A stretch of 37,838 bases of DNA from a virus (taxonomy: Duplodnaviria; Caudoviricetes), in IMG/VR virus record IMGVR_UViG_3300048856_000128, positions 1-37,838 of that record. One strand, 5' to 3'. The notes beneath the pieces were generated by a model. The model made no database searches, was not told where the DNA came from, and saw only the letters and a list, made by a program, of their open reading frames with translations. This document shows, piece by piece, positions 9,459 through 36,800 of this stretch; positions within the stretch are counted from its first letter, which is position 1; each line of letters starts with the position of its first letter. Made by a program: the position numbers and the translations under genes.

Positions 9459-9829
9459 CGGCGCCGGGCCGCCCGCCCGTGACGGGCCGACAGCGGGCAC
9501 CGATGACGCCCGAGGAGTACCGCTCCCACGTCGCCGGCGCGATGACCGAGGCCGCCCTCCTCGAGCGCGTGCGCCGCACCGCCCGCGAGCTCGGCTACCT
9601 GACCTACCACACGCACGACAGCCGCCGCTCCGAGCCGGGCTTCCCCGACCTCGTCCTCGTCGGCCAGCGCGTCATCTACGCCGAGCTCAAGCGAACGCTC
9701 GGCCGCGTGAGCCCCGAGCAGAAGAAGTGGCTCGCGGCGCTCGCCGCAGCCGGCGCCGAGACCCACGTCTGGCGCCCTGTCGATCTCCTCGACGGCACCA
9801 TCACCGCCGTCCTGACCCGGAAGGACTGA
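9455..9829 (+). CDS. VRR-NUC family nuclease (resolvase-like)
   Basis: GFPDLVLV...AELKR..GRVSPEQKKW PD-(D/E)xK motif; start could be further downstream. Confidence 0.9.
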   Translation: MTAPGRPPVTGRQRAPMTPEEYRSHVAGAMTEAALLERVRRTARELGYLTYHTHDSRRSEPGFPDLVLVGQRVIYAELKRTLGRVSPEQKKWLAALAAAGAETHVWRPVDLLDGTITAVLTRKD

Positions 9830-9831
9830 CC

Positions 9832-10302
9832 GTGCCGAGCACCGCCGCACGCACCGCACCGCTGCACCGCGCCCAAGACGTCGTCGACGCCCGCCGCTGG
9901 TTCGTGTACTCCCACGTCGAGGCTGGCTCGGGCTGGTTCGAGAACGTCGAGGCCGCCGAGAACCTCTTCGACGGCATCGCCCACGGCCTAACCCGTGAGG
10001 TCGTGCTCGAGTGGGCCACCAACATGCGCCGCGCCGACGAGCCGTCCGTCGGCCCCACCGAGTCGGGGACCACGCCGGCTGCCCGCGCCGCGGCCGTGAT
10101 CGCCGCCCGCCTCCACCGCGACGTCGAGCAGCTCGACGTCGACCTCGCCCGCGACATGCTCTCCGCCGCCCTCGACCGCGACGAGCTGGCCCGCGCGATC
10201 GCCGCCTCCGACGGCAACGGCCCGGTCGAGTTCAACACCTACCGGACCCCGTACCGCCGCAACGCCGACGGCGTCATCGAGCACCTGTTGCGGCAGACGT
10301 GA
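9832..10302 (+). CDS. Hypothetical phage protein
   Basis: RBS AAGGA; high GC3. Confidence 0.7.
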   Translation: MPSTAARTAPLHRAQDVVDARRWFVYSHVEAGSGWFENVEAAENLFDGIAHGLTREVVLEWATNMRRADEPSVGPTESGTTPAARAAAVIAARLHRDVEQLDVDLARDMLSAALDRDELARAIAASDGNGPVEFNTYRTPYRRNADGVIEHLLRQT

Positions 10303-10481
10303 CCGGCCCCCGGCGCTCGCGGCCCTGCACCTCGTGCGGCAAGGCGCCGGCCCGTCTGTACGCCGGCGGCTGGCGGTGTGACGAGCACGCGCCGCCGCGG
10401 CAGCCGGCCCCGCCGCCGGGCACGACCCTCGCGGAGATCCGCGCCCGCTACGAGCAGCAGAAGGAGGTGACCACCACGTGA
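10299..10481 (+). CDS. Small Cys/His protein
   Basis: CTSCG...WRCDEH; GTGA overlaps. Confidence 0.65.
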   Translation: MTGPRRSRPCTSCGKAPARLYAGGWRCDEHAPPRQPAPPPGTTLAEIRARYEQQKEVTTT

Positions 10482-10570
10482 CGACGACCCCGAACCCGCA
10501 GCCCCTGCGCTGCGAGTCCTGCGGCGGCGTGATCAACCCGATGACCGGGGAGTGCCGCTGCTCCGACTGA
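10478..10570 (+). CDS. 30-aa Cys-rich peptide (not in ORF track)
   Basis: RBS AAGGAGG; VTTTPNPQPLRCESCGGVINPMTGECRCSD*. Confidence 0.6.
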   Translation: MTTTPNPQPLRCESCGGVINPMTGECRCSD

Positions 10571-10606
10571 CCCACCCGACCCGACTCCCGGAAGGAGCCG
10601 CACCGC

Positions 10607-11722
10607 GTGTCCTGGACCCGCGGCGGCGACAGCGCCGCCACCCACCCCGACCTGATGAGGGTCGCGGGGCATGACCCGGAGGACGAGCGACTCCTCAACG
10701 AGGTCGCCGGCTTCGTCTTCCGGTGCTACTTCCAGGTCGCGCTTCACACCACCGACTACGTCGTCGACCCGGGCACCGCGATGACGATGGGCCTGTCGCG
10801 TTGGCGGCAGCTCGTCGCCCACGCGGTGCGCGCCGGCCTCATGACCGAGGTCGACGTCGACGGCATCACGCACTGGCAGCTCAAGGCCGACGCCGAGTTC
10901 ATCCACGTGCGCACCCGCGCAGAGATCGAGTGGGACCGGCAGCGCAAGCGGGACCTGAGCGACCCGCGCCTGTACGTACAGGTGCGTCTGCGCGACGGCG
11001 ACAACTGCCGCTGGTGCGGCATCCTCGTCCACTGGACGGGCCCGATGACCAACCGCACCGGCACGCTCGACCACCTCAACCCTGGCGAGTCCGGCACGCC
11101 CGACACGCTCGTCGTCGCCTGCGCTCAGTGCAACCAGGGCCGCGGCGCCGACCGCGAGACCTGGGACTCCCGCAAGACACTCCGCCCGGCACCCGACCGG
11201 CCCGTCTACGGCGTCCACACCGCCGGCGTGCTGACACGCAACGGGTGGCCCGTCGAGCCGAACCACCTCAGCGACGACGACCGCCGCAAGGCGCCGTCGG
11301 CAGCGGACCCCGCACGCCCTGATCAGGCTGTGCGACCCGCGCCGACCGGCGACGGCCAGCGTCGGCGCTCCAAGGCAGCAGCGGACCCCGCACGCCCCCA
11401 GGCTGGGCGACCCGCAGCGCCGGCAGCAGCGGACCCCGCACCGCCCCCGCGTGCGACCCGCAGCGCCACCCCGCCGGAGTCTCGCCCGAGTCCCACCCGA
11501 GTCCCGGACTCCCAGTCTCCGGAGACAGGTCTTGTCGGGTCGGGTCGGGAAGGGTCGGTAACCCCCACCACAGAGGACGCCCGCGAGGGCGCTACCTCCC
11601 CCGGCTCAGCACCCGCACCTTCTCGCCAGTCTCAGCCCCAGCAGACCTCGTCCTCTCGCCGTCGCCGTCGTGGCAAGCGTGGAGGTCGCCCTCGCCCCAC
11701 CCCCGGAGGTTCCTCCTCGTGA
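10607..11722 (+). CDS. Putative replication initiator with HNH-like Zn domain
   Basis: RDGDNCRWCG..TLDHL..LVVACAQCN; low-complexity C-terminus containing iteron-like repeats; position in the early operon. Confidence 0.7.
   Translation: MSWTRGGDSAATHPDLMRVAGHDPEDERLLNEVAGFVFRCYFQVALHTTDYVVDPGTAMTMGLSRWRQLVAHAVRAGLMTEVDVDGITHWQLKADAEFIHVRTRAEIEWDRQRKRDLSDPRLYVQVRLRDGDNCRWCGILVHWTGPMTNRTGTLDHLNPGESGTPDTLVVACAQCNQGRGADRETWDSRKTLRPAPDRPVYGVHTAGVLTRNGWPVEPNHLSDDDRRKAPSAADPARPDQAVRPAPTGDGQRRRSKAAADPARPQAGRPAAPAAADPAPPPRATRSATPPESRPSPTRVPDSQSPETGLVGSGREGSVTPTTEDAREGATSPGSAPAPSRQSQPQQTSSSRRRRRGKRGGRPRPTPGGSSS
11300..11461 (+). repeat. Iteron-like direct repeats (candidate origin)
   Basis: GCAGCGGACCCCGCAC at 11300, 11378, 11426 alternating with GCGACCCGC at 11332, 11407, 11453. 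Confidence 0.7.
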
Positions 11723-13488: not shown

Positions 13489-13725
13489 GTGCAGCTACCG
13501 GACTGGATCGCGCTCGCGATCGCCGCGGCTCCGTGGCTGATCGGCGCGGCGAGCCTCTACAGCGGAGGGCCTTCCCGGGACTGGCACGCTCTGCACCTCG
13601 TGCGCCGCGGGCATCAGGTGCACGTCCGCACGGATCCGCGTTGCGTGCTCTCCGCCCCTCCGCGGCGCGGCTCGCCGCTCGACCGTCGCTCGCGCGGCGT
13701 CCTCTGCCCCCGGTGCCATGCATGA
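13489..13725 (+). CDS. Small protein with N-terminal hydrophobic helix
   Basis: RBS GGAGG; overlaps the next start. Confidence 0.55.
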   Translation: MQLPDWIALAIAAAPWLIGAASLYSGGPSRDWHALHLVRRGHQVHVRTDPRCVLSAPPRRGSPLDRRSRGVLCPRCHA

Positions 13726-14104
13726 CCGTCGAGCGATTCATGACCGGCGCGAAGCCGGCGGCACCATCCGCGGGATCGCCCGCGACGTCGGCGCCTCGCG
13801 CAACGCGGTGCGCCGCGCGCTCGCGCCGGGCGCGCGCGACCGCTATCACCGCCGCTCCTCGACCGAGGAGGTCGAGCTCGCCGTCCGCGAGGTGCTCGCC
13901 GACTACCCCCTGCTGACGGTCGAGGAGATCGGGCAGCTCGTGGAGTGGCGGCGCTCGCGGCGCACCCTGTCCAACCTCGTGGCCCGGCTGCGGCCGGAGT
14001 ACCTCGAGCGGGCGCAGCAGCACCAGCCGCGCGCGGCCGTCGGCACGCTCCGCGTCGGCACCATGCACGTCGGGACCATGGCCGTGGGGAGGGCGATCTT
14101 GTGA
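13718..14104 (+). CDS. HTH protein resembling the N-terminal DNA-binding region of IS21 IstA
   Basis: IRGIARDVGASRNAVRRAL..VREVLADYP..IGQLVEWRRSRRTLSNLVARLRPEYL. Confidence 0.7.
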   Translation: MHDRRAIHDRREAGGTIRGIARDVGASRNAVRRALAPGARDRYHRRSSTEEVELAVREVLADYPLLTVEEIGQLVEWRRSRRTLSNLVARLRPEYLERAQQHQPRAAVGTLRVGTMHVGTMAVGRAIL

Positions 14105-27174: not shown

Positions 27175-29439
27175 GTGCAGTCCATTCCCGGCTGGGACCC
27201 CGAGGCGGACGTCACCACGCCGACGGCTCAGGTTACGGTCGATGGCACCGCGCTCGACATCGAGGACGTCGAGGTGAAGCGCGAGCTTGCGTCCTCCCTA
27301 CCGGGGACCGTGCTCGGCGCTGGCGGCATCACCGCCGCAGGAGGCGACGTCACGTGGGCTCAGCCCGAGGACGTCGAGACCCGCTCGCGCACACCGTGGG
27401 CACCGGAGGGCGCACTGCCGCCCGCTGGCGGCTCCCGTGCGGTCGTCACCATGGGCGACGAGCGGGGCACGTGCACCCTCCTCACCGGCCGCATCGACGA
27501 CGCGGCCGGTGCGTTCGCGGGCGGTGCGCTCACTTCGGCGCTGGTCGACGACATCGACAGGCTGAACCAGCCGGTGACGCTGCCCCCGCTGATCAACGCC
27601 ATGCCGCCGCTCGTCGAGGGCAACCCTGCGCGCTACGTGGGCCTGTCTGGCGTCTGGGTCGCCGACCGGGTTCTGCGCATGTGCGGGTACTACGCCACCC
27701 CGCCGGCCGTGTCCGGCACGGTGGTCTCCGCGACGGCCATGGGATCGATGTGGCCTGAAGTCGGTGAGGTCACGGCGTGCACCGACTTCGACGGCACGGG
27801 CTTCCCCCAGTTCGTCTCCACGCCATGGGGCGCCGCCGCGCAGGGCGTCAACGCCTATTACGCCCCCATCGTGGCGCGGACGCTGGACTCGCCGATCGAG
27901 GCAATGGTGTTGTGGCCGGGCGCTGCGGCGGGCAACTTCTCCGTCACCGTGACGTTCGGGTCGGTGTCTCTCCGCCTAGCCACGACTGCGGCGAACGTCG
28001 TGGCGCAGACCATCGCATCGGGCACCACGACGACCGTCGCGACCGCTGCGCGCGGAGCCGCCACCATGGCGGTGCTGCGGGCAACGCCTTCAGGCGCCTC
28101 GCTCCTCGTCGAGCTGCGGACGAACGCCGGGGCGTCCGTCTCCGCGACGATCACCCCGCCAGCTGGGATGCTGACGACCGCGCTCTCACAGGTTCGCGTC
28201 GCCTCGGCCAACGCGACGGCCCAGGTTGGTGCCGTCAAGGTGGGCTTCCCGGCTACCGCTTTCGCCGACCTCGCGTTTACGGCGACGACGGTGTTCCGAC
28301 TCCTCGCCTTCTCGCCGCACGCCCTGGTCGCGCAGCCCGCGATCATCAACCGCAACGCCCTCGACCTGCTCAAGGAGCACGCCGCTGCCGTCTGCGCTGC
28401 GATGTGGCTCGACGAGCAGGGACGCGTCCAGTGGGTCGCGCGCGATGTGCTGTGGCGCGGTGACTCCGTGCGCACGCTCACCGCGAAGGACGACCTGCTC
28501 GACGCGGCATGGTCAGACGAGTGGCGTGACGTGTACTCGCGGGTCGTCGTGAAGTGGTCCGAGGTATCCGTGACCCGCTCGTCCCGCGACAACGTGACCC
28601 TCTGGGAAGGCAGCAGCGGGACCGTCGAGAGCGGCTCGCTCATCGCCGACTTCGCCAGCCCGCCCGCAGGTGAGGACTGGATCATGGTCGATACGAGCAT
28701 CACGAAGGTCGGACCGTCGTCTGACCTCGCGGACTACAACTACGGCCGCGGCTCGTTCACCGGGGCGACGCTCTCCGACGGCGGTACCGAGACGTGGGCG
28801 TCCACTTCGCTCCTCAACACCGGGGTCCGCCGCATCGACTGGCGCACCTACGGTGTCTTTACCGATGTTGGCGCCGTCCCCACCGGCAAGCAGGCCAGCA
28901 TGCAGGGGCCCTCCGAGTTCGGCCTCGGCGTCTGGTCATCCCGGTTCGGGCAGAAGCTCCCCGTACTGCGCGGCCGCGCCAAGTTCGAGCTCACCGACAC
29001 CCAGTTCTACTCCGACACGCGCGGCCCCGCCGAAGCCGCCGTCTACACCCACGACGCGGGGTGGTGGGTGCAGTACGAGACCCAGGCCCAGGCGCTCGCG
29101 GATTGGATCGCCTCCACGGCGACGATCCGTACTCCCAACCTGCGCGACGTCCAGGTCGTGTTCGACCCGCGTCTACAGCTCGGCGACAAGGTCGTGATCG
29201 AGGACCCCGCCCGCTCCGGGTTGCGCGTCACGGGCGTCGTCTTCGGCCTGCAGCAGATCGTCGCTCAAGCGAACGCCGCGACGCGGCTCTCCCTGCGCGT
29301 CCTTGAGGTCGCCATCATCCACCCCACGCTCCGCCAGTACGACACCGTCTGGCAGGGCGCCACCCTCGCTCAACGCGACGCGCAGTGGTCCGGGAAGACC
29401 CTCGCGGCGTTCGACGCCAACCCCCTCAGGAGGGACTAA
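27175..29439 (+). CDS. Minor tail / baseplate hub protein (754 aa)
   Basis: AAMWLDEQG and DPRLQLGDKV hub-type motifs; synteny. Confidence 0.82.
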   Translation: MQSIPGWDPEADVTTPTAQVTVDGTALDIEDVEVKRELASSLPGTVLGAGGITAAGGDVTWAQPEDVETRSRTPWAPEGALPPAGGSRAVVTMGDERGTCTLLTGRIDDAAGAFAGGALTSALVDDIDRLNQPVTLPPLINAMPPLVEGNPARYVGLSGVWVADRVLRMCGYYATPPAVSGTVVSATAMGSMWPEVGEVTACTDFDGTGFPQFVSTPWGAAAQGVNAYYAPIVARTLDSPIEAMVLWPGAAAGNFSVTVTFGSVSLRLATTAANVVAQTIASGTTTTVATAARGAATMAVLRATPSGASLLVELRTNAGASVSATITPPAGMLTTALSQVRVASANATAQVGAVKVGFPATAFADLAFTATTVFRLLAFSPHALVAQPAIINRNALDLLKEHAAAVCAAMWLDEQGRVQWVARDVLWRGDSVRTLTAKDDLLDAAWSDEWRDVYSRVVVKWSEVSVTRSSRDNVTLWEGSSGTVESGSLIADFASPPAGEDWIMVDTSITKVGPSSDLADYNYGRGSFTGATLSDGGTETWASTSLLNTGVRRIDWRTYGVFTDVGAVPTGKQASMQGPSEFGLGVWSSRFGQKLPVLRGRAKFELTDTQFYSDTRGPAEAAVYTHDAGWWVQYETQAQALADWIASTATIRTPNLRDVQVVFDPRLQLGDKVVIEDPARSGLRVTGVVFGLQQIVAQANAATRLSLRVLEVAIIHPTLRQYDTVWQGATLAQRDAQWSGKTLAAFDANPLRRD

Positions 29440-31360: not shown

Positions 31361-31810
31361 GTGACCCCAGGACCCATCCCCGACGGCGCCCCGTGGTGGG
31401 TGTGGCTCGTTGGCGTCGGCGTCGTGCAGCTCTTCGGGCTCGTCAGTCTGATGCTCACGCAGCGGCGCAACGGGCGGAAGATCGACCGGGCGGTCGAGCA
31501 GGTCGAGAACGATCATGCGAACCACCCCTATCCGAACCTGCGTCAGCAGCTCGACGCGATCCAGGACGCCGTCTCGGTGGCGGCAAGCACCGCCACGCGT
31601 GCCGCCGAGGCGACCGAGCGGCTCGAGCGCGGACACAACGAGACGCGCCGGGACATCGGCGGGCTGCGCGAGGACATCCGCCAGGTCCGCGGTGACGTCG
31701 GCGAGGCGCGTCGGGAGGCGAGCGCTGGGCACCGGGAGGCGGCCGTCGCCAGCCGCCGGGTGCGTGACCTCGAGGAGACCCTCACGGAGCACCTCAGCGC
31801 CGGCAGCTAG
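31361..31810 (+). CDS. Lysis-cassette membrane protein (single TM plus coiled coil, DUF2746-like)
   Basis: TM followed by EQVENDH..NLRQQLD..DIGGLREDIR. Confidence 0.75.
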   Translation: MTPGPIPDGAPWWVWLVGVGVVQLFGLVSLMLTQRRNGRKIDRAVEQVENDHANHPYPNLRQQLDAIQDAVSVAASTATRAAEATERLERGHNETRRDIGGLREDIRQVRGDVGEARREASAGHREAAVASRRVRDLEETLTEHLSAGS

Positions 31811-31837
31811 AACCGCACCACCTCAACCATTACCTGC

Positions 31838-31862
31838 AGGGCCCGTGCGATGCACGGGCCCT
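31838..31862 (+). terminator. Hairpin before the endolysin gene
   Basis: AGGGCCCGTGC-GAT-GCACGGGCCCT followed by TCGT. Confidence 0.6.
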
Positions 31863-31883
31863 TCGTCATGCCTGGGAGGCACC

Positions 31884-32900
31884 GTGTCGTTCCGCATCAT
31901 CCCCCGCAGCGAGTGGGGCGCGAAGTACGCGCCGAGCTCCAACACGCGCACCGTGCGCCGACTCGAGAAGTGGCTGCACCACAGCGTCACCGTCGCGCCG
32001 GACGTCGTGCCGCCGTTCGATGACGACTACGCCGCCGTGCGCAGCATCGAGGCCATCACCGAGGGCCGGTTCGGAATCGGCATGGCGTACACCTTCCTGG
32101 TCACCCCGGCGGGCCTGATCTTCGAGGGCCACCCCATCGACCGGGTCGGGGCGCACACGGCGGGCCACAACCGCTACGGGGTGGGCATCTGTCTGGTCGG
32201 CAACTACGAGAACGCCAAGCCGACCGCGGCGCAGAAGCAGGCCGTCGCCTGGCTGATCCGCTACGGCATCGAGCGGGGCTGGTGGGAGCACCCGTCGCTG
32301 AACGGCGGGCACCGCGACACCAAGGCCACTGCCTGCCCCGGCAGGTACGCCTACGCGGTGATCGACGAGATCAACGCCCTGGCTGCCGCGGGCGAGATCA
32401 GCGGCGGGCCGGGCGCGTCCGCCCCGGTGCCGGCGCCGGCGCCGGCCAAGCCCGGCGCCAAGCGCGAGCCCCGGTTCCTGCCCACGCTGCGTGAGCAGCC
32501 GTTGCCGCGGGAGAGCTCCGGCTGGGACGGGCTGTGGCAGGCCACGCTGCACGAGCTCGGCTACGGCGAGGTCGTCGGCAAGATCGACGGGAAGTTCGGC
32601 CCCGCCACCACCCGCGGCACGATCCAGTTCCAGAAGGACCACGGACTGACGCCGGACGGCGTCGTCGGCCCGCGCACCTGGACGGCGGCCATGCTGTCCG
32701 GCGGCGACAACCGCCTCAAGGCCGGCGACCGCGGCAAGCGCGTCGAGATCCTGCAGAACATCGTCCGCGTTGCGACCGACATGGTGTTCGGTGACGACAC
32801 CGGCAACGCCCTCGGCGAGGTGCAGCGGTGGCTCGGCATCGACCCCGACGAGGTGTTCGGCCCCGACAGCCGCAACGCGCTCATCCGAAAGTGGCCGTGA
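31884..32900 (+). CDS. Endolysin: PGRP-like Zn amidase plus peptidoglycan-binding domains
   Basis: PRSEWGA, LHHS, YTFLV, GAHTAGHN, GHRD..TACPG; FQKDHGLTPDGVVGPRTW. Confidence 0.95.
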   Translation: MSFRIIPRSEWGAKYAPSSNTRTVRRLEKWLHHSVTVAPDVVPPFDDDYAAVRSIEAITEGRFGIGMAYTFLVTPAGLIFEGHPIDRVGAHTAGHNRYGVGICLVGNYENAKPTAAQKQAVAWLIRYGIERGWWEHPSLNGGHRDTKATACPGRYAYAVIDEINALAAAGEISGGPGASAPVPAPAPAKPGAKREPRFLPTLREQPLPRESSGWDGLWQATLHELGYGEVVGKIDGKFGPATTRGTIQFQKDHGLTPDGVVGPRTWTAAMLSGGDNRLKAGDRGKRVEILQNIVRVATDMVFGDDTGNALGEVQRWLGIDPDEVFGPDSRNALIRKWP

Positions 32901-33058
32901 CGGTGACCCGCGTCCGTCGCGCGGCCGTGGCGACGGCCCTCGCGCTCGCCGCGGCCGCCCTCACTCTCGGGCTGTGCTGGGTCGCCCTCGCCCTCATCGT
33001 GCGGGCCTACCTGGAGCCCCTCCTCGTCCTGGCCCGACTCCTCACCCACGGAGGCTGA
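32897..33058 (+). CDS. Small membrane protein (53 aa)
   Basis: GTGA overlap; hydrophobic. Confidence 0.65.
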   Translation: MTVTRVRRAAVATALALAAAALTLGLCWVALALIVRAYLEPLLVLARLLTHGG

Positions 33059-33061
33059 CCC

Positions 33062-33673
33062 GTGCTCCTCACCGCCGACTTCTGGCGCGCCGCCGGCGTG
33101 CGCGCCCTGTACACCGTCCTCGCGGCCGCGCTGCCGCTCGTCGCCCCGCTCGTCGGCGTCCCCGACGTTCGCACCGTCCTCGAGGCTCTCGTCGCTCTCG
33201 CATTCGTCGCGGTCGCCTCGCTCGCCACGTCGCTGGCGAACCTGCCGGAGCTCGGCGGCGGCCGCTCCCATGCGGCCGCGGTCATCGACCGCATCGCCCG
33301 CAGCTTCTTCCAGGTCCTCGCCGCGGCGCTCGCGGCCGCCGTGACTTTCGGAGATGTCGACTGGGCAACCCTCCTCGTCCAGGCCGCCGCTGCCGCACTC
33401 GTCACGGCGATCCGCGTCGCGATCGCCGCGCTGCCCGAGGACATCACTGCAGCGCCAACGACGCCCGACGACGCCCGCGTCATCACCGCGATGCCCGAAG
33501 CTCCGTGGCCGGCCCGAGGCGCCCGGGCCATCACTCCCTCGGGAGACCATGGCGAGGTCGCCTGGACCAGCACGAGCGAGCACGCCACGACCGCCGCTCT
33601 CATCCCCGACGACCCGGCGAACCCAACCTGGTACGGCCCCGCGCACGAGCTCAGGCCCGAGGAGCCGGTATGA
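33062..33673 (+). CDS. Holin (r1t-like, apparently duplicated domain)
   Basis: FWRAAGVRALYT and DRIARSFFQ..VDW motifs; multiple TMs. Confidence 0.8.
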   Translation: MLLTADFWRAAGVRALYTVLAAALPLVAPLVGVPDVRTVLEALVALAFVAVASLATSLANLPELGGGRSHAAAVIDRIARSFFQVLAAALAAAVTFGDVDWATLLVQAAAAALVTAIRVAIAALPEDITAAPTTPDDARVITAMPEAPWPARGARAITPSGDHGEVAWTSTSEHATTAALIPDDPANPTWYGPAHELRPEEPV

Positions 33674-33780
33674 CCGGCGGCGTCGTCCAGAGCTCTGTGC
33701 CCACGTGCACCGACTGCGGCAAGCCCGAAGGCTCCTGCAGCGGCTGCATCGCGGCCGTCGCCGAGGTGCGGCGTCGCTGA
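33670..33780 (+). CDS. 36-aa Cys-rich peptide
   Basis: ATGA overlap; CTDCG..CSGC. Confidence 0.5.
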   Translation: MTGGVVQSSVPTCTDCGKPEGSCSGCIAAVAEVRRR

Positions 33781-33784
33781 AACT

Positions 33785-33824
33785 CACGGCCCCCACCTCC
33801 CCGAACGGGGAGGTGGGGGCCGTG
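33785..33824. terminator. Strong hairpin terminator between convergent genes
   Basis: Perfect 18-bp stem CACGGCCCCCACCTCCCC with GAAC loop. Confidence 0.85.
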
Positions 33825-33838
33825 TCGTCGTCTCTCCG

Positions 33839-34978
33839 TCAGGCGGCGTAGAGGTGGAAAGCCTCGACGGTCAGGTCGACGTCGGGGGTGATGGTGATCG
33901 TGATGTCGTGCTCGTCGAGCCCGAGCGTGACGGCGCGGCGGACGGTTTCCGGGAGGCCGCCGGTGAGCGCATGGGTGGTCGTTGGCTTGCCGGAGATCTC
34001 GACGGTGACCGTGCCGCGCTCGGTCGCGGCGAGCTCGAGCACGAGCTGCTTAGTCGCACCGAGGTAGCGGTCAGTGCCGCCGGACGTGACCTCGACGCGG
34101 TACGACTGCCGGGCGGGCACCATGGCGGTGTCGGTCCAGGGCGCCAGGTCGTGCCGATAGCTGCTGCCTACGTCCGCGATCCACATGCCGGAGTAGGACA
34201 GCACCTCGATTTCGCCGGCGTCGCGGCGGGCTGCGATGTCGGCCAGCACACGAGCGAGGTCTTCGGTGCTGAGGTAGCCGTCTCGGTCGAGGAGCAGCGG
34301 GTGCACCATGATCGTGATGCCTGCCCTCTGCTGGACGGCTTCGTCGAGGAACGCGGCGGCCTCTGCGGGGGTGTGACGGTCGATGTTCCGGTGCCACGCC
34401 CCGAACAGCATCTCGCCGTCGAGCGTCCACGTCCGCTCGCCCATGTAGCCGGCGACCGCTGCGTGGTGCTCGAGGATGAGTTGCCCGGCGTAGGTGTCGG
34501 TGTACTGCTCGACGGTCTTGAACGGCGCCGCGCCCATGTACGCCCCGGCCTTGACGCCCGGCGGCGCCCACCCTTCGACGGCGAGCCGCGGCATGTGCGC
34601 CCGGATCTGCTTGAGCGTCCCAACGACCTGGTCGCGGATCTCCGCTTGAGTGGCGGCGTCGCGGTGGTTGGTCCCGTGATTCCACACCTCGCCGCCGTAC
34701 TGCAACGCCAGCTCCTGCAGGCGGCTCCAGGTGAAACCGTCACCGGCGGCGGAGATCCCGACGCGGTTCGCGATCTGGGCCCACGGCAGCTGGTGCGCGA
34801 CGAGAGCTGGCAGCACCTTCCGCTCAAAGTCGTCGTAGTGGTGGTCGAACCGCAGCGCCACCGCCGGCTTGCCGCCGGTGCCGATGCTGCCGCCGCGACG
34901 AGCGCGGAACCGGGCCACGAGCTCCTCGTGTCGGTCGAGCACGCTCGCGCGAGCACTGAGCTGGCGGCTGGAGTCCAT
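33839..34978 (-). CDS. Stand-alone CE4 polysaccharide-deacetylase-like protein, paralogue of the tail fibre C-terminal part (379 aa)
   Basis: ALRFDHH, EVWNHGTNH, IMVHP; RBS GGAGA; alternative GTG start at 35053. Confidence 0.88.
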   Translation of the reverse strand: MDSSRQLSARASVLDRHEELVARFRARRGGSIGTGGKPAVALRFDHHYDDFERKVLPALVAHQLPWAQIANRVGISAAGDGFTWSRLQELALQYGGEVWNHGTNHRDAATQAEIRDQVVGTLKQIRAHMPRLAVEGWAPPGVKAGAYMGAAPFKTVEQYTDTYAGQLILEHHAAVAGYMGERTWTLDGEMLFGAWHRNIDRHTPAEAAAFLDEAVQQRAGITIMVHPLLLDRDGYLSTEDLARVLADIAARRDAGEIEVLSYSGMWIADVGSSYRHDLAPWTDTAMVPARQSYRVEVTSGGTDRYLGATKQLVLELAATERGTVTVEISGKPTTTHALTGGLPETVRRAVTLGLDEHDITITITPDVDLTVEAFHLYAA

Positions 34979-35049
34979 GGGGAAGTTCTCCCCTGGCAAT
35001 GGTGTCCGGCGCAACTTCCGGGCGGGTGAAACCTCCTGCACCGTCCCGA

Positions 35050-35688
35050 TCACGCGAATCTCCGACTGCGCGGCGCAAGCATCGCGCGGATGCTCGCCAG
35101 TGTCTCGGGGCGGGCAGGGTTGGCAGCGGCGTGCGCCGCCTCGTCGACGAGCTGCTTCTGCACGATCGAAGGCGCGGGCCGCACGCCCCACCGGGGTGCG
35201 CCCGTCTTCCTCCAAAGGGAGGGGAAGGCCTGCCGTCCTGTCACGTTGGGAGCGCCGCCGGAGCGGGCGGCACGGGCCCTGGCGCGGGCATCCTTGGCGG
35301 CGCGGGCGCCGGGCAGCATCGCGACGAGGACGCGCTTGGCGAGGCGCAGGAGCGAGGCCACGCCGTGCAGCCCCCGACGGGCGCCGCGTCGCAGTTGCTC
35401 GAGTACGCCGGCGTCCTGCAGCCATGTGCGCGCCCGGATGATGGTGCGCACCGACAGCCCGGCACGCTCGGCCGCCTGACCGTCGGTGACTTCGGCGACG
35501 CCGGTGCGCGCGTCGGCGAGCCGACCGAGGGCGATGAGGTAGGTGCGCACGGACTGCGGGGCGTCGCGCAGTTCGCCCCACCCGGAGGCGGCGAGGGCGT
35601 CGACGATGCGCCACAGCGGCGCGTGGGCGTTGATGCGCACAGGGGGCGGCGATGTCACCGCTCCCCCGCTATTCTGCGGGGTAGCCAT
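35050..35688 (-). CDS. Winged-helix protein, Rep-initiator-like (212 aa)
   Basis: VTDGQAAERAGLSVRTIIRARTWLQDAGVLEQLRRG wHTH; very basic. Confidence 0.75.
   Translation of the reverse strand: MATPQNSGGAVTSPPPVRINAHAPLWRIVDALAASGWGELRDAPQSVRTYLIALGRLADARTGVAEVTDGQAAERAGLSVRTIIRARTWLQDAGVLEQLRRGARRGLHGVASLLRLAKRVLVAMLPGARAAKDARARARAARSGGAPNVTGRQAFPSLWRKTGAPRWGVRPAPSIVQKQLVDEAAHAAANPARPETLASIRAMLAPRSRRFA
35173..35254 (+). repeat. 82-bp structured direct repeat, copy 1
   Basis: 68/82 identical (ungapped) to 36077-36158. Confidence 0.9.
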
Positions 35689-35717
35689 GGAGAGGGCCTC
35701 ATCCTCTTCGGTGGTCA

Positions 35718-35761
35718 GGCCCCGTCTGGTGTTGGTAGCACCTGGCGGGGCCGTTCTGTTG
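35718..35761 (+). terminator. Hairpin plus T-rich tail antisense to the wHTH gene leader
   Basis: GGCCCCGTC-T-GGTGT-TGGTA-GCACC-T-GGCGGGGCC followed by GTTCTGTTG. Confidence 0.6.
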
Positions 35762-35991: not shown

Positions 35992-36033
35992 AGTATGTCT
36001 AGCCCGCTTGTCATTTGTCTAGCGCGCTTGACA
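35992..36033 (-). promoter_or_regulatory. Leaderless promoter overlapped by two palindromic operators
   Basis: TGTCTAGCCCGCTTGTCA 35996-36013 and TGTCTAGCGCGCTTGACA 36016-36033; minus strand reads TAGACA-18bp-CATACT-6bp-ATG. Confidence 0.75.
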
Positions 36034-36076: not shown

Positions 36077-36158
36077 CGCGGGGCGCACACCCCCACTGGG
36101 TGCGCCCGCCTTCCTCCGATAGGAGGGGAAGGCCTGCCACCGTGTCAGGTTGGAAGCG
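36077..36158 (+). repeat. 82-bp structured direct repeat, copy 2
   Basis: 68/82 identical to 35173-35254; two hairpins. Confidence 0.9.
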
Positions 36159-36689: not shown

Positions 36690-36737
36690 CGGACTTTTAA
36701 TCCGCGGGTTGTGGGTTCGATCCCCACGGGGCCCACC
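36690..36737 (+). other. att core: duplicated 3' half of tRNA-Lys(TTT)
   Basis: CGGA-CTTTTAA-TCCG anticodon arm, GTGGG-TTCGATC-CCCAC T-arm, GGGGCCC-A-CC acceptor strand; no 5' half upstream. Confidence 0.92.
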
Positions 36738-36800
36738 CCTCACGCCTCCGGTCGGCGCCACGTCGGCGTGACCGCCGTCACCGTCCGATAGCGTGCCGTC

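Follow-up and report, generated by a model that had tools for sequence, protein, structure and literature searches.

An apparently temperate phage genome carries, beyond its lysis genes, a free gene for a predicted CE4 deacetylase (P0001) that is homologous to the tip of the phage's own tail fibre (P0002). Receptor modification, which had been put forward in a previous reading made from the sequence only, remains the best guess for its function. P0001 is tentatively predicted to be a cytoplasmic, receptor-modifying enzyme of lysogenic conversion, with a rough probability of 40%. According to this proposal, P0001 is an anchor-less tail-tip protein of a lineage other than that of the phage's own fibre tip, and would probably be made in the lysogen from a leftward unit that is not late. 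It would then stay in the cytoplasm and remove acetyl groups from a host wall glycopolymer, or from the lipid-linked precursor of such a polymer, before export. This would weaken the binding of phages with tips that depend on the acetylated sugar.

The window (the whole stretch of DNA that was analysed) is a single virus record of 37,838 bases, IMGVR_UViG_3300048856_000128, with a G+C content of ~72%. It contains genes for a tyrosine integrase, repressor-like proteins, terminase, portal, capsid, tape measure, tail proteins, amidase, and holin, and is read as a temperate prophage of the siphovirus type. The features around the free gene are listed in Table 1. The tRNA fragment, which we take to be Lys from our reading of the anticodon, likely marks attR, and thus the free gene would lie inside the prophage. 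ARAGORN reports no whole tRNA, and attL has not been found in the first 5 kb of the window. The relatives of the phage suggest a high-G+C actinobacterium as the host, which is taken to be of soil type. A comparison with plasmids returned no match. A mis-assembly is contradicted by a 15 kb Logan contig from one run, possibly the source sample itself, which bridges the fibre to the free gene with 0 differences. Elsewhere in the window, an ORF at 1-939 adjoins the integrase and has matches to DUF7946 and to PDC-S42, a model for a candidate defence system in PADLOC (E 3e-18). A short HTH ORF at 13718-14104, just 5' of the small terminase gene, resembles a transposase N-terminus.

Table 1. Features of the window in the region of the free deacetylase gene (positions in the window).
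Feature	Position	Strand	Remarks
Baseplate/minor tail gene	27175..29439	+	One full-length relative (L005/L107, 59-60%)
Tail fibre P0002, 604 aa	29440..31254	+	Anchor 1-42; two pyocin-knob-like repeats ~43-225; CE4 barrel and beta-sandwich 231-604
Lysis cassette	31361..33780	+	Between fibre and free gene; membrane protein, amidase endolysin, holin, small ORFs
Hairpin	33785..33824		Perfect, 18 bp, G+C; between the convergent lysis genes and free gene
Free deacetylase gene P0001, 379 aa	33839..34978	-	ATG start; PF01522, phrog_11373, AlphaFold model
Spacer, 71 nt	34979..35049	-	RBS-like GGGGAG; DNA likeness to related prophage ends is lost at 35066-35084, where the HTH gene finishes
HTH-like gene, 212 aa	35050..35688	-	Directly 5' of free gene
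Small HTH gene, 63 aa	35794..35985	-	First gene of leftward unit; phrog_686, E 7e-10
Promoter-like site TAGACA-18-CATACT	35992..36021	-	7 nt before small HTH start; 1 found, 0.1 expected
tRNA 3' part (presumably Lys)	36690..36741	+	Likely attR; fragment also in relative L003

The reading frame of P0001 is intact, its codon pattern is like that of a real gene (GC3 0.90, GC2 0.48), and an identical protein is present in a public protein collection. The purine-rich RBS-like site lies ~8 nt 5' of the ATG. A longer product of 591 aa from an upstream GTG has been ruled out, as the upstream frame is not coding-like. A broken fibre gene has been ruled out as well: the open stretch 5' of the gene (to 35614) contains no fibre remnant by HMM (E at least 0.43, compared with 8e-33 for the N-terminus of the fibre itself). 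The protein consists of an N-terminal helix (residues 2-27), a CE4/NodB barrel (~30-273), and a beta-sandwich (~277-379). It starts just before the conserved helix, with only ~13 residues ahead of it, and neither a hydrophobic nor a Tat signal has been found. The sequence-only reading had described P0001 as a CE4/NodB protein on the opposite strand, with its own RBS and with neither a virion anchor nor a signal peptide, and all of this is borne out. P0001 scores 28.1 bits against PF01522 (cut-off 23.1) and E 3e-74 against phrog_11373, annotated "tail protein"; P0002 is also above the PF01522 cut-off and also matches phrog_11373. Searches of the PDB by sequence, of NCBIfam, and of PADLOC return no match for P0001.

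The AlphaFold model of P0001 has a pLDDT of 92 (26-row alignment). The best solved structural match is the HFTV1 turret deacetylase 8qpg (Z 19.6, rmsd 3.6, 217 residues aligned). The match to Mycobacterium smegmatis 3rxz has a Z of 17.5, and CE4 chains overall give Z 14-17.5 with rmsd about 3. Among predicted structures, the best matches are Arthrobacter phage tail proteins (Mudcat and Kumotta models, TM 0.88-0.90). Asp45, His101, His105, and His226 are invariant in all 26 aligned sequences, and His46 is also listed as conserved. Going by the canonical CE4 consensus, we take Asp45 to be the motif 1 aspartate, His101 and His105 the two metal-binding histidines of motif 2, and His226 the catalytic histidine of motif 5. 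Measured against the same motifs, P0001 deviates in two places: motif 1 is D-H, with His46 where a second aspartate is expected, and motif 3 has WAPPG in place of RxPY, so that the arginine is missing. These deviations make the activity of P0001 less than certain, though D-H is the common state within the family; the residue after Asp45 is His in 144, Asp in 36, and unread in 18 of the 198 family proteins. Based on the fold and the four key residues, and with these two deviations, P0001 is predicted to work like a CE4 deacetylase.

The homology between P0001 and the fibre tip is clear. BLASTP aligns P0001 with fibre residues 227-533 at 37% identity (114/311, E 2e-47), as the sequence-only reading had noticed; the 42-residue block that it quoted is 25/42 identical by hand count, and the other motifs that it quoted are present. 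The N-terminal third of P0002, which folds like pyocin fibre knobs by structure match, has no counterpart in P0001. At the DNA level the two genes are 53% identical over 1056 aligned nt, third codon positions at shared residues are identical in 44 of 90 cases, and the longest exact match is 17 nt, inverted, located at the EVWNH motif within a catalytic motif and not at a junction. An exhaustive search of 1.84 billion representatives returned 636 matches to P0001. Among the 150 matches listed, P0002 ranks 104th, with 103 cluster representatives scoring higher.

Two unrooted trees have been built, a 124-row FastTree and a 33-row IQ-TREE, after dropping 4 short and 5 duplicate rows. The sister of P0001 is P0003 (377 aa, also anchor-less, 52% identity, support 98/95). 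This pair is nested in a clade of fused tips, and the fibre tips of other phages come next. The P0002 tip, on the other hand, is the sister of the fibre at locus L013 (100/99). Forcing P0001 and P0002 into one clade, as expected for a duplicate, lowers the log-likelihood by 168.7 (AU test, 33 rows, p 6e-61). A recent duplication of the fibre tip has been ruled out by the DNA identity, the rank of the fibre, and the AU test. The two genes are thus best described as xenologues. The term "paralogue" used in the sequence-only reading survives in a loose sense only; the idea that the prophage keeps a free copy of its own enzyme has to be given up, as the free gene belongs to a different clade of fibre tips.

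The anchor-less state is the minority state in this family. Among 198 family proteins, 179 are fused, 132 of these with the N-terminal repeats of the fibre, and 19 are short, several of which are fragments. As the trees are unrooted, the direction from fused to free is taken from the majority state; on the 124-row tree, in which 12 rows count as free and 77 as fused, anchor-less forms would have arisen at least three times. P0003, being anchor-less at 52% identity, would make the free form old. P0003 may be a contig-edge fragment; its genomic context was not found in the viral contigs searched, and neither was a closer free relative. A single-protein scan of viral contigs for close relatives returned none for P0002 and one weak 27-residue match for P0001.

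The arrangement of the two genes had also suggested a silent donor, and this proposal finds little support. A donor cassette, or an invertible segment of the Mu G or P1 C type, could swap the fibre tip; the geometry fits, since the free gene is on the opposite strand and begins about where the fibre tip begins, and the 17-nt exact match is inverted. However, the low identity in DNA and at third codon positions speaks against exchange between the two genes, no longer inverted repeat is present at the junctions, and inversion would flip the lysis genes. Among the subset of ORFs scanned there is neither an invertase nor a single-strand annealing recombinase, only the tyrosine integrase. In run X1, none of the joints inspected is a strand switch (15 of 16 joints in one set and all 3 in another, read from contigs, which drop rare variants). 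A donor or inversion function is therefore highly improbable.

The fibre itself looks like a mosaic, with a tip from a clade other than that of the free gene. For the anchor, 5 of the 9 best hits carry tips at least 48% like the free gene, and for the first knob this is the case for 6 of 9. The two best hits of the second knob, on the other hand, carry tips that are 58-59% like the window's own tip, and the second knob and tip together resemble P0142, P0158, and L013 (58-59%). Behind the only full-length relative of the baseplate gene, in L005/L107, lies a fibre gene with a tip of the same clade as the free gene, 53% like P0001 and 40% like the P0002 tip; a second baseplate match ends at the edge of its own contig. 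DNA likeness to L005 is about 68% for both the tail module and the free gene. These patterns fit a history in which the fibre swapped its tip and the older type was kept as a free gene. Such a history is suggestive only, because P0115, the protein that matches the anchor best, has a tip of neither type, and a similar baseplate is combined with a tip of a third clade in prophage L023.

If this history is taken at face value, P0001 could simply be a retired tip, stranded behind the HTH gene as a functionless, neutral, and recent passenger. The fibre mosaic and the baseplate relative are what such a past would leave behind, and the pairing of fibre and free gene has been seen once. Counting against this are the intact frame, in which every invariant residue is retained, the position of the start directly ahead of the helix, the RBS-like site, and the lack of any trace of the fibre upstream. 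The anchor-less sister P0003 also argues against it, as do P0115 and L023. We consider a functionless remnant unlikely.

The genomic position of P0001 bears on how it might be expressed. The hairpin downstream (z about -7 on both strands, as stable in 0 of 200 shuffles) is likely a bidirectional terminator lacking a U tract. Upstream, the HTH label of the 35050-35688 product is our reading of its sequence, and the protein has no match in Pfam, PHROG, or NCBIfam. An 18-nt direct repeat that overlaps the promoter-like site is possibly an operator. A scan for sigma-70 types found no promoter-like site in the 71-nt spacer and one ~1 kb upstream. With the HTH genes and the promoter-like site on one side and the hairpin on the other, the free gene appears to be part of a leftward unit distinct from the late operon. 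This unit may be active in the lysogen, as the proposed conversion enzyme would require.

The same position is relevant to a role at lysis. Soluble P0001 could gather in the cytoplasm, be freed at lysis, and deacetylate the receptor on debris, which would release progeny, or on neighbouring cells. This would account for the missing signal peptide in an enzyme whose parent fibre tip has its substrate at the cell surface, and the gene adjoins the lysis cassette. Anchor-less, soluble depolymerases have also been put forward as a hypothesis for the Klebsiella phages PKP126 and 1513 (PMC6872550). However, P0001 is outside the late operon, on the opposite strand and behind a strong hairpin, and its clade differs from that of the fibre tip whose receptor would need clearing. 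A release function is possible but, on balance, rather unlikely.

The place occupied by P0001 is held by another gene in related prophages. In all 5 comparable prophage ends, defined by lysis or tail genes next to them (L002, which equals L098, L003, L099, L100, and L101), a gene for a DUF2637 membrane protein takes the place of the free gene. Other HTH loci have not been counted: six close ones (L083, L084, L085, L102, L103, and L104) lack DUF2637 and show no obvious genes for tail or lysis, four are distant, and G879 ends at the HTH gene. No remnant of DUF2637 is present in the window. P0001 thus replaces DUF2637 and is absent from this place in these relatives, as a moron would be, and the replacement is the pattern expected of gained cargo.

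Several other elements have been observed in this region. A conserved pair of HTH-like and DUF2637 genes adjoins the attachment site in several actinobacterial prophages (L002, L003, L099, L100, and L101). An 82-nt direct repeat (83% identical) has one copy within the HTH-like gene, towards its 3' end (35173-35254), and the other 5' of a small rightward gene (36077-36158). It is also matched in L002, L003, L099, L102, and L103 and is possibly an origin or a regulatory site of the module next to the attachment site. An inverted repeat at 35703-35733 lies upstream of the HTH-like gene, and L003 has a similar element in the equal place. In L003, a glycosyltransferase gene for capsular-polysaccharide synthesis (PF05704, 3261-4196) is found right behind the holin and is another glycan-modifying cargo of the corresponding region.

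The pairing of a fibre with a free reverse-strand copy is so far known from this one genome, an argument against a conserved system. In the 14 IMG/VR records that were selected because they contain the family (6 of them at least 90% complete), there is one copy each, and none has the fibre together with a free gene. The sequence-only reading had looked to co-occurrence in relatives, and in this respect its expectation is partly disappointed. The family is matched in 38 phage records of GenBank, of which 6 (three phages) have matches in two places, and the two places in Heisenberger are tandem fused tail genes. A profile that recovers known positives detects no member in 337 genomes of the probable host family or in 401 genomes of another family. 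As the family is this rare, the chance co-occurrence of two members in one 38-kb element would be unlikely without a shared target glycan or donor pool, and the co-occurrence may suggest that the two share a target glycan.

Dual tips within one phage raise the question of whether P0001 could be a second receptor-binding spike, which would dock through its N-terminal helix or through another tail protein and provide two tip specificities like those of branched fibres. The family does use dual tips: Heisenberger (L004 5318-9059) and the metagenome locus L040 (8975-12499) have two divergent CE4 tips in tandem fibre genes, and the proteins P0080, P0116, and P0127 each have two divergent CE4 tip domains in one chain. 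P0001 has retained the conserved N-terminal helix, and KP34 gp57 is a known example of an anchor-less spike that uses a short peptide for docking (PMC6872550). However, both tips in the Heisenberger and L040 loci have long N-terminal parts and are encoded on the late strand, whereas P0001 lies outside the late operon and offers only about 13 residues before the helix. A complex prediction that combines P0001 with two fibre tips has a score of 0.01, which speaks neither for nor against docking. We regard a second spike as decidedly improbable.

Homologues in bacterial chromosomes link the family to wall glycans. In a Rothia locus (L026, 9932-11059), an anchor-less and signal-less homologue is located between wecB/wecC-like genes (UDP-GlcNAc 2-epimerase and UDP-sugar dehydrogenase), TagF-like polymerases, and glycosyltransferases. 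A Brachybacterium homologue (L027, 10001-10840), also anchor-less and signal-less, is surrounded by genes for glycosyltransferases and heparinase-like proteins, and metagenome locus L052 is arranged similarly. A Paenarthrobacter homologue (L019, 9878-11002), likewise without anchor or signal, adjoins a hexapeptide acyltransferase. The L022 homologue (9650-11080) keeps ~120 N-terminal residues and has a neighbour gene similar to the glycosyltransferase gene of L026. The family is matched 3 times in each of two Brachybacterium genomes. The Clostridium homologues have hydrophobic N-termini or long extensions. Domestication of phage tips may be the origin of the chromosomal copies in Rothia, Brachybacterium, and Paenarthrobacter, and the contexts of these copies suggest that signal-less members are kept where wall glycans are made. 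TagF-type polymers are built on the cytoplasmic face of the membrane. The missing signal peptide of P0001, which the sequence-only reading had left unexplained, becomes less puzzling in light of the signal-less host homologues in wall-glycan synthesis loci.

Several observations count against the conversion enzyme. The pairing has been seen once, the D-H of motif 1 and the absent arginine of motif 3 bear on activity, and a tip that evolved on a surface polymer may not reach a cytoplasmic precursor. As its clade differs from that of the fibre tip, the free enzyme may not act on the receptor of its own phage. Also, the host homologues belong to clades other than that of P0001, their function is putative, and the window itself contains no host glycan locus. 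A broader form of the proposal holds that phages and actinobacterial hosts repeatedly free fibre deacetylase tips as intracellular receptor editors. The prophage would pre-strip the wall glycan of its lysogen with the tip of a rival, perhaps its own former, class as a defence against superinfection, and the Rothia and Brachybacterium copies would be the host-domesticated version. This generalization is speculative, and we consider it somewhat improbable.

If the conversion reading is correct, the use of a receptor-destroying tail-tip enzyme inside the lysogen would be a new route of exclusion. It would also tie the swapping of fibre tips to the diversity of surface glycans in Actinomycetota, a group for which little is known about phage receptors. 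A genome with two divergent tips, of which one is free and predicted to be soluble, is a convenient starting point for finding the substrate of this family of predicted tail deacetylases. Should P0001 be no more than a stranded tip, it would document fibre mosaicism and be of minor importance.

Parts of this picture are already known: glycan acetylation by temperate phages, deacetylating spikes, the hypothesis of anchor-less soluble spikes, and a CE4-like domain in a virion. A free tail-tip CE4 deacetylase in a prophage has not been found described in the literature searched, in which coverage of subscription journals is poor. Among known systems, the closest are minor tail proteins with a CE4 domain in Arthrobacter phages (Mudcat gp18, Heisenberger gp18/gp19, Kumotta gp25, and Adaia/Atraxa gp14), which have the same barrel and beta-sandwich at 26-36% identity and for which the literature searched contains no activity tests. 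These are fused to N-terminal virion parts and encoded among tail genes, whereas P0001 is anchor-less, on the opposite strand, and beyond the lysis genes; it belongs to their family, in which being free sets it apart. With the CE4 enzymes (NodB, PF01522; PdaC, PgdA, and ArnD-like), P0001 shares the fold and the Asp/His/His/His positions, but it differs in the two motifs described above and is 11-21% identical to the solved chains listed. The turret head of Haloferax tailed virus 1 (HFTV1; 8qpg) has a virion CE4-like domain with a carbohydrate-binding module, which is proposed to act on host glycan (10.1101/2024.12.09.627619). It is unlike P0001 in being a virion-bound trimer with the reverse domain order, from a virus of an archaeal host, at 13% identity.

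Other systems resemble P0001 in its proposed role and not in fold. The extra depolymerases of Klebsiella phages PKP126 and 1513 are anchor-less receptor-processing enzymes that are hypothesised to be soluble (PMC6872550). For the deacetylase spike gp63.1 of coliphage G7C, receptor deacetylation is essential (PMC10743462). Unlike P0001, these have beta-helix and SGNH folds, belong to lytic phages of Gram-negative hosts, and are encoded within the tail region. Temperate phages also carry serotype-converting morons, proposed to alter glycan acetylation and thereby exclude rivals, with O-acetylation by Salmonella A3/A4, by Shigella phages, and by Pseudomonas D3 as cases (PMC13123978). The known serotype-converting prophages add acetyl or glucosyl groups by means of transferases, and their function has been shown, whereas that of P0001 is predicted. 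P0001, a hydrolase derived from a receptor-binding tip, would instead remove the acetyl groups.
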